Assembly: GCF_988242995.1 (NCBI RefSeq)
Contig: NZ_OZ547043.1
Length of the DNA: 64,000 nt
Strand: one strand, 5' to 3'
Part shown: one piece after another, positions 30,986 to 36,603 of the stretch
How the letters are laid out: each line of letters opens with the position of its first letter
Position numbering within the stretch: the stretch's first letter is position 1
Position numbers and translations under genes: made by a program
Notes under the pieces: model-generated
What the model saw: only the letters and a program-made list of their open reading frames with translations
The model's database searches: none
Told to the model about the DNA's origin: nothing

Positions 30986-33340
30986 ATGAATCCTGAGCGT
31001 TCTGAACGCATTGAAATCCCCGTATTGCCGCTGCGCGATGTGGTGGTTTATCCGCACATGGTCATCCCCTTATTTGTCGGGCGGGAAAAATCTATCCGTT
31101 GTCTGGAAGCGGCGATGGACCATGATAAAAAAATTATGCTGGTCGCGCAGAAAGAAGCTTCAACGGATGAGCCGGGTGTAAACGATCTTTTCACCGTCGG
31201 GACCGTGGCCTCTATATTGCAGATGCTGAAACTGCCTGACGGCACCGTCAAAGTGCTGGTCGAGGGGTTACAGCGCGCGCGTATTTCTGCGCTCTCTGAC
31301 AATGGCGAACACTTTTCTGCGAAGGCGGAGTATCTGGAGTCGCCAACCATTGATGAGCGGGAACAGGAAGTGCTGGTGCGTACTGCAATCAGCCAGTTCG
31401 AAGGCTACATCAAGCTGAACAAAAAAATCCCACCAGAAGTGCTGACGTCGCTGAATAGCATCGACGACCCGGCGCGTCTGGCGGATACCATTGCTGCACA
31501 TATGCCGCTGAAACTGGCTGACAAACAGTCCGTTCTGGAGATGTCCGACGTTAACGAACGTCTGGAATATCTGATGGCAATGATGGAATCGGAAATCGAT
31601 CTGCTGCAGGTTGAGAAACGCATTCGCAACCGCGTTAAAAAGCAGATGGAGAAATCCCAGCGTGAGTACTATCTGAACGAGCAAATGAAAGCTATTCAGA
31701 AAGAACTCGGTGAAATGGACGACGCGCCGGACGAAAACGAAGCCCTGAAGCGCAAAATCGACGCGGCGAAAATGCCGAAAGAGGCAAAAGAGAAAGCGGA
31801 AGCAGAGTTGCAGAAGCTGAAAATGATGTCTCCGATGTCGGCAGAAGCGACCGTAGTGCGTGGTTATATCGACTGGATGGTACAGGTGCCGTGGAATGCG
31901 CGTAGCAAGGTCAAAAAAGACCTGCGTCAGGCGCAGGAAATCCTTGATACCGACCATTATGGTCTGGAGCGCGTGAAAGATCGTATCCTTGAGTATCTTG
32001 CGGTTCAAAGCCGTGTCAACAAAATCAAAGGACCGATCCTCTGCCTGGTAGGGCCGCCGGGGGTAGGTAAAACCTCTCTTGGTCAGTCCATCGCCAAAGC
32101 CACCGGGCGTAAATATGTCCGTATGGCGCTGGGCGGCGTGCGTGATGAAGCGGAAATCCGTGGTCACCGCCGTACGTACATCGGTTCTATGCCGGGTAAA
32201 CTGATCCAGAAAATGGCGAAAGTGGGCGTGAAAAACCCGCTGTTCCTGCTTGATGAGATCGACAAAATGTCTTCTGACATGCGTGGCGATCCGGCCTCCG
32301 CACTGCTTGAAGTGCTGGATCCAGAGCAGAACGTAGCGTTCAGCGACCACTACCTGGAAGTGGATTACGATCTCAGCGACGTGATGTTTGTCGCGACGTC
32401 GAACTCCATGAACATTCCGGCACCGCTGCTGGATCGTATGGAAGTGATTCGCCTCTCCGGTTATACCGAAGATGAAAAACTGAACATCGCCAAACGTCAC
32501 CTGCTGCCGAAGCAGATTGAACGTAATGCACTGAAAAAAGGTGAGCTGACCGTCGACGATAGCGCCATTATCGGCATTATTCGTTATTACACCCGTGAGG
32601 CGGGCGTGCGTGGTCTGGAGCGTGAAATCTCCAAACTGTGTCGCAAAGCGGTTAAGCAGTTACTGCTCGATAAGTCATTAAAACATATCGAAATTAACGG
32701 TGATAACCTGCATGACTACCTCGGTGTTCAGCGTTTCGACTATGGACGCGCTGATAACGAAAACCGTGTCGGTCAGGTAACCGGTCTGGCGTGGACGGAA
32801 GTGGGCGGTGACTTGCTGACCATTGAAACCGCGTGCGTTCCGGGGAAAGGCAAACTGACCTATACCGGATCGCTTGGCGAAGTGATGCAGGAGTCCATTC
32901 AGGCGGCGTTAACGGTGGTTCGTGCGCGTGCGGAAAAACTGGGGATCAACCCTGATTTTTACGAAAAACGCGACATCCACGTCCACGTACCGGAAGGTGC
33001 GACGCCGAAAGATGGTCCGAGTGCCGGTATTGCTATGTGCACCGCGCTGGTTTCTTGCCTGACCGGTAACCCGGTTCGTGCCGATGTGGCAATGACCGGT
33101 GAGATCACTCTGCGTGGTCAGGTACTGCCGATCGGTGGTTTGAAAGAAAAACTACTGGCAGCGCATCGCGGCGGGATTAAAACAGTGCTAATTCCGTTCG
33201 AAAATAAACGCGATCTGGAAGAGATTCCTGACAACGTAATTGCCGATCTGGACATTCATCCTGTGAAGCGCATTGAGGAAGTTCTGACTCTGGCGCTGCA
33301 AAATGAACCGTCTGGCATGCAGGTTGTGACTGCAAAATAG
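30986..33340 (+). CDS. lon: ATP-dependent protease Lon
   Basis: ORF 30941-33340; start at [21 protein letters not shown] (784 aa); Walker [10 protein letters not shown]; catalytic Ser context PKDGPSAG. Confidence 0.97.
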
Positions 33341-33547: not shown

Positions 33548-33820
33548 GTGAATAAATCTCAATTGATCGACAAGATTGCTGCAGGGGCTGATATCTCTAA
33601 AGCTGCGGCTGGCCGTGCGTTAGATGCTATTATTGCTTCCGTAACTGAATCTCTGAAAGAAGGGGATGATGTAGCACTGGTAGGTTTTGGTACTTTTGCC
33701 GTTAAAGAGCGTGCTGCCCGTACTGGCCGCAACCCGCAGACCGGTAAAGAGATCACCATCGCTGCCGCTAAAGTACCGAGCTTCCGTGCAGGTAAAGCAC
33801 TGAAAGACGCGGTAAACTAA
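33548..33820 (+). CDS. hupB: DNA-binding protein HU-beta
   Basis: 90-aa ORF, GTG start ([27 protein letters not shown]...). Confidence 0.96.
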
Positions 33821-33855
33821 GCGTTGTCCCCAGTGGGGATGTGACGAAGTTCAAG

Positions 33856-33881
33856 GGCGCATCTACTGATGTGCCTTTTTT
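33856..33881 (+). terminator. Rho-independent terminator after hupB
   Basis: ggcgcatc-tact-gatgtgcc stem-loop followed by tttttt. Confidence 0.65.
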
Positions 33882-34595
33882 GTGCACAGAAAACCCCCAG
33901 CTAGGCTGGGGGTTCCGGAAAGCTTTCAGCTTTGAGCCAGTTATTAAAACCCCTTTTGATTTGTTAAAACACCTTGCGGTCTGGCAACTGCAAGTGTCAA
34001 ACAAGAAATCAAAAGGGGGTCCCAATGGGGAACGAAAAGAGCTTAGCGCACACCCGATGGAACTGTAAATATCACATAGTTTTTGCGCCAAAATACCGAA
34101 GACAGGTGTTCTACAGAGAGAAGCGTAGAGCAATAGGCAGTATTTTGAGAAAGCTGTGTGAGTGGAAAAGCGTACGGATTCTGGAAGCTGAATGCTGTGC
34201 AGATCATATCCATATGCTTGTGGAGATCCCGCCCAAAATGAGCGTATCCGGGTTTATGGGATATCTGAAAGGGAAAAGCAGTCTGATGCTTTACGAGCAG
34301 TTTGGTGATTTGAAATTCAAATACAGGAACAGGGAGTTCTGGTGCAGAGGGTACTACGTCGATACAGTGGGTAAGAACACGGCGAAGATACAGGATTACA
34401 TAAAGCACCAGCTTGAAGAGGATAAAATGGGAGAGCAGTTATCGATTCCCTATCCGGGCAGCCCGTTTACGGGCCGTAAGTAACGAAGTTGGATGCAAAT
34501 GTCAGATCGTGTGCGCCTGTTAGGGCGCGGCTGGTAAGAGAGCCTTATAGGCGCATTTGAAAAACCTCCGGCTATGCCGGAGGATATTTATTTAT
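33882..34595 (+). mobile_element. IS200-like insertion sequence (IS200/IS605 family), ~0.71 kb; ends approximate (+/- ~20 bp)
   Basis: Single Y1/HUH transposase gene flanked by subterminal perfect hairpins (left cccccagc-tag-gctggggg at 33894-33912; right cctccggc-tat-gccggagg at 34565-34583); the hupB-ppiD spacer is ~0.9 kb here, much longer than I recall for K-12. Confidence 0.85.
34025..34483 (+). CDS. tnpA: IS200 transposase TnpA (Y1 HUH-type)
   Basis: ORF 33974-34483; start at MGNEKSLAHTRWNCKYHIVFAPKYRR (152 aa); HUH motif (ADHIHMLVEIPP) and C-terminal catalytic-Tyr region (GYYVDTVG). Confidence 0.9.
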   Translation: MGNEKSLAHTRWNCKYHIVFAPKYRRQVFYREKRRAIGSILRKLCEWKSVRILEAECCADHIHMLVEIPPKMSVSGFMGYLKGKSSLMLYEQFGDLKFKYRNREFWCRGYYVDTVGKNTAKIQDYIKHQLEEDKMGEQLSIPYPGSPFTGRK

Positions 34596-34723
34596 TTGTA
34601 TTCGGTGACTTTCTGCGTCTTGTGGGCTGACAATTGCCCCCGTTTCTTGTCACAATAGGCCTTTGCGCGCATCGATACGTTGCGTGAGGTACACAGTCAT
34701 CTACAGCGGAGTGTTGTTACACC

Positions 34724-36603
<1,880 letters not shown>

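Follow-up and report, generated by a model that had tools for sequence, protein, structure and literature searches.

IS200 is commonly stated to be an essentially immobile and ancestral insertion sequence. In Salmonella IS200, the left-end hairpin, the counterpart of the one described below, acts as a bidirectional terminator (nt 12-34), and the substitution Y125F yields a catalytically dead TnpA (PMC4513863). The STnc490/art200 RNA has been described as antisense to the 5'UTR and start codon of tnpA (PMC2515195, PMC4513863), and small RNAs derived from read-through transcripts that end in the left end of the element have also been noted in Salmonella (PMC2515195). Here, an IS200 copy situated between hupB and ppiD was analysed together with its insertion site, and its surroundings were compared with those of related copies in other genomes.

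The window, meaning the whole 64-kb stretch of DNA that was analysed, is colinear with K-12 at ~96-98.5% identity, and lon ends at position 33340 on the + strand, upstream of hupB. The hupB-ppiD spacer measures 903 bp in the window compared with 191 bp in K-12 MG1655, the latter in agreement with the ~0.2 kb given in a preliminary description of this DNA. Alignment to the K-12 empty site places the extra DNA in one clean 712-bp block, made up of the 711-bp IS200C element and one T, and reveals no target-site duplication. At this junction K-12 has GCCTTTTTT joined to ATTTGTA, and the window reads GCCTTTTTT, then GTGCACAG...ATATTTATT, then T and ATTTGTA. The preliminary description had proposed a discrete IS200-like insertion between hupB and ppiD, which the alignment bears out. 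It had also given the span as 33882-34595; the start of this span is exact, but its end lies 2-3 nt too far, as the element ends at 34592. The features of the locus outside and at the borders of the element are as follows.

33548..33820, + strand: hupB, an open reading frame that matches the K-12 hupB annotation.
33855..33881, + strand: hupB intrinsic terminator, consisting of the hairpin GGGCGCATC-TACT-GATGTGCCT (33855-33876) and T6 (33876-33881).
33882..34592, + strand: IS200C element, 711 bp, from GTGCACAG to ATATTTATT, delimited by the K-12 alignment and by the shared 711-bp unit.
34593, + strand: extra T, present neither at the other three occupied hupB sites nor at any empty site.
34627..34656, + strand: predicted promoter-like site upstream of ppiD, CTGACA-18-CACAAT with TG, from a consensus scan.
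34724..36595, + strand: ppiD, the open reading frame of the downstream gene.

Elsewhere in the window, positions 7401-9382 between pgpA and yajO hold ~2 kb without a K-12 counterpart, with a GC content of 27-36%, and look like a small horizontally acquired islet. The sole open reading frame of this region (7581-9152, - strand, 523 aa) has pentapeptide repeats, and its resemblance to the type III effectors PipB2/PipB is weak and far sub-threshold. Between yajO and dxs, K-12 has 126 bp that are missing from the window (10371-10373), and the mscK-rsmS spacer is 228 bp in K-12 versus 57 bp in the window (62707-62765). Both length differences probably reflect intergenic repeat variation.

The 711-bp unit from GTGCACAG to ATATTTATT is present with the same exact length at 12 other E. 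coli sites. Its termini are not inverted repeats of each other, and with TT both in front of the element and at its end the true cut points may be situated 0-2 nt further left. The right cleavage point probably lies just after ATATTTATT. For the copy between mglB and mglA, deletion of exactly 711 bp in silico gave a sequence with 100% identity over 180 nt to real empty sites of other strains. Because the sequence left after this deletion recreates real empty sites, there is no target duplication. The extra T at 34593 of the window does not represent a duplicated piece of the flank as usually understood. A T7 allele of the empty hupB site was not found among 5,420 genomes, the best match being 99.4% identical (one gap), and the T at 34593 therefore came with or after the insertion. 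Within the 711 bp of the element, the following features were located.

33892..33914, + strand: left subterminal hairpin with a 10-bp stem and a 3-nt loop.
33892..34015, + strand: IS200 regulatory left end, a full-length match to Rfam RF01405 (STnc490) that scores 146.4 bits (gathering score 56; E 1.6e-31).
33944..34033 (approximate), - strand: putative STnc490/art200-type antisense region, placed by homology to the descriptions in PMC4513863 and PMC2515195.
33950..34018, + strand: 5'UTR stem-loop predicted to hide the ribosome-binding site, with a fold of -21 kcal/mol (z -4.9) and a role taken from Salmonella IS200 (PMC4513863).
34025..34483, + strand: tnpA, an intact open reading frame for a 152-aa Y1/HUH transposase that includes ADHIHMLVEIPP.
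34565..34583, + strand: right subterminal hairpin, CCTCCGGC-TAT-GCCGGAGG, with an 8-bp stem and a 3-nt loop.
34584..34592, + strand: right-end tail ATATTTATT, which makes up the final 9 nt; beyond it, all E. coli IS200C copies examined diverge.

The only open reading frame that fits in the 711 bp is tnpA, the rest being end structures, and neither tnpB nor iscB is present, a feature by which the IS200 group is told apart from the IS605 and IS1341 groups. TnpA matches Pfam PF01797 (Y1_Tnp) over residues 11-129 with E 4.4e-38 and NCBIfam NF033573 (transpos_IS200) with 147.7 bits at a cut-off of 55, and its relatives in the PDB are 2ec2, 2f4f, 2a6m (IS608) and 2xm3 (ISDra2). The HUH motif (H61-I-H63) and the catalytic residue Y125, which is followed by IKH-Q129, are intact. 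The assignment to the IS200 group of the IS200/IS605 family that had been made beforehand is thus supported by both profiles, by the PDB relatives and by the occurrence of tnpA alone, and the 152-aa HUH/Y1 transposase with a C-terminal tyrosine region had been recognized correctly. The assembly index records a protein identical to this TnpA in over 21,000 of its blocks. Copies that are 98.5-99.6% identical carry the RefSeq label 'IS200/IS605-like element IS200C family transposase', and the name IS200C is taken from this RefSeq/PGAP annotation, not from ISfinder. A second IS200C copy was not found within the 64-kb window.

It can be stated with high confidence that the insertion represents IS200C in intact form, i.e. 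the IS200 of E. coli, a tnpA-only member of the IS200 group in the IS200/IS605 family, and that it lies behind the hupB terminator and had this terminator as its target. Judged by its sequence, the copy is complete and apparently functional. IS200C itself is already known and the find is an ordinary one; the one point of wider interest is the sharp pattern of terminator targeting.

Both subterminal hairpins, which had been described with 8-bp stems and 3-nt loops, do fold. The 8-bp core of the left hairpin, CCCCCAGC-TAG-GCTGGGGG, is extended to a stem of 10 bp with a DNA fold of -11.7 kcal/mol (z -3.6 versus shuffled controls), and this hairpin is presumably the binding site of TnpA. The right hairpin folds as DNA at -10.0 kcal/mol (z -5.5 versus shuffled controls) and appeared terminator-like on both strands in a scan. 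A match to Rfam Ysr202 at 34560-34666 on the - strand, with 27 bits against a gathering score of 315, was taken as a chance match to a terminator-like hairpin and rejected. The Rfam STnc490 match lies on the tnpA-sense strand and spans the left-end terminator hairpin, whereas the RNA reported in the literature runs antisense, so that the orientation of the Rfam model is not to be equated with that of the RNA.

The 19-nt core of the left hairpin, CCCCCAGCTAGGCTGGGGG, occurs exactly in at least 120 loci of very distant groups (Pseudomonadota, Bacillota, Desulfovibrionaceae, Saccharibacteria and Elusimicrobia), and conservation of such depth suggests strong constraint, wide horizontal spread, or both. 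In Dickeya undicola, a lone left-end hairpin is found in a 43-nt perfect palindrome (GTCTATAGAAAA-hairpin-TTTTCTATAGAC) just behind a terminator, without a downstream transposase gene, and may be a miniature derivative or a remnant. In a Ruminococcus MAG, the same hairpin core is apparently at the right end, followed by ATGCTTATT and then by unrelated flanks. If this reading is true, the hairpin that forms the left end in one IS200-group element would form the right end in another.

IS200C starts directly after the T6 of the hupB terminator and leaves the terminator intact. The terminator hairpin has the same sequence in the K-12 empty site and folds as DNA at -7.5 kcal/mol (z -4.3); a simple terminator scan did not list it, but folding shows it clearly. 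The expectation of the preliminary description that the element would be inserted next to a hairpin-forming target agrees with this position directly behind hairpin and T6.

Complete E. coli genomes were compared at the hupB-ppiD junction. IS200 is present there in 3 of 5,426 genomes, namely KGu016 (river water, Japan), SC418 (sediment, USA) and MEW (ivory gull, Poland), and an IS200 copy anywhere (at least 80% of the query covered) is present in 703 of 5,426, with at most 36 matching places per genome. With 3 occurrences in 5,426 complete genomes, the hupB-ppiD copy is a rare marker, and its earlier description as strain-specific holds in the sense of strain- or lineage-specific. The RefSeq annotation gives hupB as 291 nt in MEW and SC418 versus 273 nt in K-12 and KGu016 for what is apparently the same sequence; this mismatch is an inconsistent choice of start codon in the annotation.

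None of the three copies at the hupB site is identical to that of the window, from which they differ by 5 (MEW), 27 (SC418) and 29 (KGu016) substitutions. A closer relative, with 2 substitutions, is the mglB copy in another, unrelated strain. The flanks of the hupB-site carriers differ from the window by 0.5-1.3% (BLAST), much like those of K-12. At the yfeX terminator, in the yfeX-pbp4b spacer of E. coli, IS200C is found in two strains at points 3 nt apart, in one case after TTTTT and in the other after TTTTTATT, and these two insertions are clearly independent events. The simplest reading, which these observations suggest, is that independent insertions have occurred repeatedly into the same terminators, including the same nucleotide at hupB.

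Alternatively, a single old insertion between hupB and ppiD could have spread by homologous recombination and later have undergone gene conversion from other IS200 copies. This would account for the junction at the same nucleotide in all four genomes, and E. coli recombines freely, with genomes of 13-19 copies holding many conversion donors. However, the divergence between copies reaches 4%, against 0.5-1.3% in the flanks, the copy of the window is nearer to a copy at another locus than to the MEW copy at hupB, and its junction has the extra T. In addition, the two insertion points at the yfeX terminator are beyond gene conversion, and more than 5,400 genomes have an empty hupB site. A single origin is therefore regarded as doubtful, albeit an alternative of some weight. 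Repeated insertion at hupB and recombination with conversion are both at odds with the view of an immobile IS200.

The first look-alike insertions lay behind yfeX, mglB and a gene close to ykgR, and in each case the flank was a terminator. As this first set was biased, having been ranked by BLAST similarity to the hupB terminator, two further samples were taken, one chosen by the hairpin and one by the protein. For the first sample, one genome per species was scanned for the 19-nt left-hairpin core, and at least 120 loci were obtained from Yersinia pestis (IS1541), Vibrio, Brenneria, Dickeya, Edwardsiella, Oxalobacter, Mailhella/Desulfovibrio, Bacillota, Saccharibacteria and Elusimicrobia. This sample covers elements with the exact 19-nt hairpin, ~27 of the sites being from one Y. 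pestis and 13 from one Vibrio genome. The second sample consisted of eight distinct E. coli sites that were located through their identical TnpA protein, so that the flanks played no part in the choice.

Among the matches listed for the first sample, a perfect GC hairpin with a T-rich tail ending exactly at the IS was found in 79 of 103 distinct left flanks (77%), E. coli flanks included, and about a quarter of the surveyed sites listed are without a perfect hairpin. As controls, random positions gave hairpin and T-tail in 1.4% of cases, and T-runs of the same loci in 12-14%. The 40-nt segment before the left end folds at a mean of -19 kcal/mol in the 103 flanks among the matches listed versus about -6 kcal/mol in controls, and four of the sites listed have weak upstream structure. 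Together with nine E. coli copies, these 103 flanks form a set of 112 sites, 96% of which have an upstream flank with a folding energy of -12 kcal/mol or lower. In this set of listed matches and nine E. coli copies, T is the prevailing base from position -6 to -1, and position -2, which is free while position -1 is fixed by the boundary rule, is T in 111 of the 112 sites. Again in the listed matches and the nine E. coli copies, the IS starts 5-8 nt beyond the last G/C of the stem in 85 of 110 cases, with a mode of 6.

In the second sample, the arrangement of hairpin and T-tract was found at all eight E. coli sites, and the upstream gene has the same orientation as tnpA in all but one of the ten E. 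coli loci listed. In Y. pestis NCTC5923, head-to-tail IS1541 pairs were observed, in which a left end comes directly after ...GCCGGAGGATATTTATT of another copy. Such pairs fit the right end (hairpin and ATATTTATT) as a target mimic, and they also look like the joint that forms when an excised element is circular.

Part of this pattern must stem from the survival of neutral insertions. As a full explanation, such survival would mean that insertion into T-rich ssDNA is near-random and that harmless copies between a terminator and the next promoter persist; since insertions into genes are harmful, an intergenic enrichment would be expected. A literature search for a stated terminator preference of IS200 or IS1541 returned only one survey preprint (10.1101/2025.07.22.666184), which describes a statistical enrichment of upstream terminators and reads it as a niche limiting transposase expression. 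Yet survival does not account for the nucleotide precision (mode 6 nt past the stem, TT at -2/-1, one orientation) at more than 100 listed sites from many phyla, nor for the fact that only 12-14% of the T-runs in the same loci follow a hairpin. It also leaves unexplained the head-to-tail insertion behind the right end of another copy and the repeated insertion at the same nucleotide. Survival instead of targeting is accordingly considered unlikely.

Because survival of harmless insertions cannot give such precision together with a single orientation, the intrinsic terminator of hupB is concluded to be the target of the insertion. The terminator being the target, tnpA runs in the same direction as hupB; the co-orientation of tnpA with both hupB and ppiD, all on the + strand, is as first described. 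As a wider rule, it is tentatively proposed that IS200-group transposases may use intrinsic terminators as structured ssDNA targets, which would mimic the right end and receive the element ~6 nt past the stem in one orientation, with recurrent hotspots and repeated movement within E. coli. This general form of the proposal is possible rather than probable. An experiment on the target choice of IS200 was not found in the searchable literature, the main reviews being outside the search, and the rule may already have been described or be more nuanced.

If target choice is the true explanation, it would explain the harmlessness and longevity of IS200 and the position of tnpA, always downstream of a co-oriented gene. 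It would also explain how read-through transcripts ending in the left end of the IS become small RNAs, and it would provide a natural example of structure-guided integration of single-strand DNA.

A mechanism for terminator targeting can be outlined by homology to IS608 and ISDra2. Dimers of TnpA would bind the subterminal hairpins on the top strand and cut at a distance, and the element would be excised as a single-stranded circle and pasted 3' of its target on ssDNA, mainly on the lagging-strand template. At hupB, the top strand of IS200C is on the + strand, which would be the lagging-strand template, as expected, because the GC skew is positive on the + strand across the locus and the hupB locus lies in the right replichore of K-12. 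The insertion point would follow a T-rich run with TT at its end, a few nucleotides (6 in most cases) beyond a hairpin rich in GC, and tnpA would always come to lie downstream of the terminated gene. The host terminator on ssDNA may be read as a mimic of the right end of the element, i.e. its hairpin followed by ATATTTATT. More speculatively, the A-rich GAAAA that directly precedes each IS hairpin might base-pair with T-rich sequence at the site of cleavage or insertion, in the manner of the IS608 guide sequences. No covariation of the bases 5' of the hairpin with the target was seen in the loci listed; the GAAAA leader is nearly invariant, and the few GAACC variants are still behind T-runs.

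From 34594 up to ppiD, the window matches K-12 without a difference, the predicted promoter included, and the insertion is upstream of this promoter. The hupB terminator and the ppiD promoter region would thus stay intact. Transcription leaving hupB would meet a second terminator in the left-end hairpin, and sequestration of the ribosome-binding site, together with the art200 antisense RNA, would leave tnpA almost unexpressed, following the description in PMC4513863. With both neighbouring signals undisturbed and tnpA repressed, the copy is most likely neutral, that is, a silent and rare lineage marker. In practice it could be used as a rare typing marker, and it is a possible site of assembly breaks or recombination.

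It is highly improbable that the copy is kept for host use, be it as a source of 5'tnpA/art200 small RNAs or as an extra terminator that insulates ppiD from hupB. In Salmonella, invF is one of many genes regulated by the processed 5' end of tnpA (PMC5435999; 10.1101/2024.06.26.600842), the left end found here is a full-score match to the small-RNA region (Rfam STnc490), and two terminator-like hairpins have been added between hupB and ppiD. On the other hand, 99.9% of the complete E. coli genomes are without IS200 at this junction, and any other genomic copy would supply the same small RNAs. That the element is not IS200 but a REP-associated tyrosine transposase (RAYT), or else a dead relic, is hardly credible, since the weak match to NCBIfam NF047646 (REP_Tyr_transpos) reaches 32.2 bits at a cut-off of 80 compared with 147.7 bits for transpos_IS200, no REP/BIME arrays flank the element in the window sequence, and the open reading frame, the catalytic residues and both hairpins are intact, with the identical protein in the >21,000 assembly-index blocks.

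Among known systems, IS200 of Salmonella enterica is alike in its size of ~710 bp, in having tnpA only, and in its transposase of 152 aa with HUH and Y125. The left terminator hairpin comprises nt 11-33 here and nt 12-34 in the Salmonella numbering, and the stem-loop that sequesters the ribosome-binding site, the STnc490/art200 region, the lack of terminal inverted repeats and the lack of a target duplication are likewise common to both. The two differ in nothing essential, 707 bp being quoted for Salmonella (PMC4513863) versus 711 bp and one T here; from other IS200C copies examined, the present one is separated by 2-6 substitutions. IS1541 of Y. pestis and Y. pseudotuberculosis has the same left-hairpin core and the same GAAAA leader, and its ~27 sampled copies are almost always behind a hairpin and T-tract. 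It differs from IS200C in its left terminus, which is GTGCCCAG instead of GTGCACAG, in its far higher copy number and in its head-to-tail tandems.

The Y1 transposases of IS608 (Helicobacter pylori) and ISDra2 (Deinococcus) are homologous to the one found here, with E 4e-19 and 2e-16 for their solved structures. Subterminal hairpins bound by TnpA, insertion of one strand 3' of a short target without duplication, and a preference for the lagging-strand template are taken as features shared with these elements. In contrast, IS608 and ISDra2 have tnpB, imperfect hairpins and the defined targets TTAC and TTGAT, whereas IS200C has perfect hairpins and no tnpB, and its target is apparently a terminator hairpin with a loose T-rich run. 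Although they are unrelated retroelements that move via RNA and reverse transcriptase and have no homology to IS200, group IIC introns act in a similar way, as they insert directly behind a stem-loop, either of a Rho-independent terminator or of an attC site, and recognize the hairpin together with a short motif such as TTGT/T (PMC7923331).
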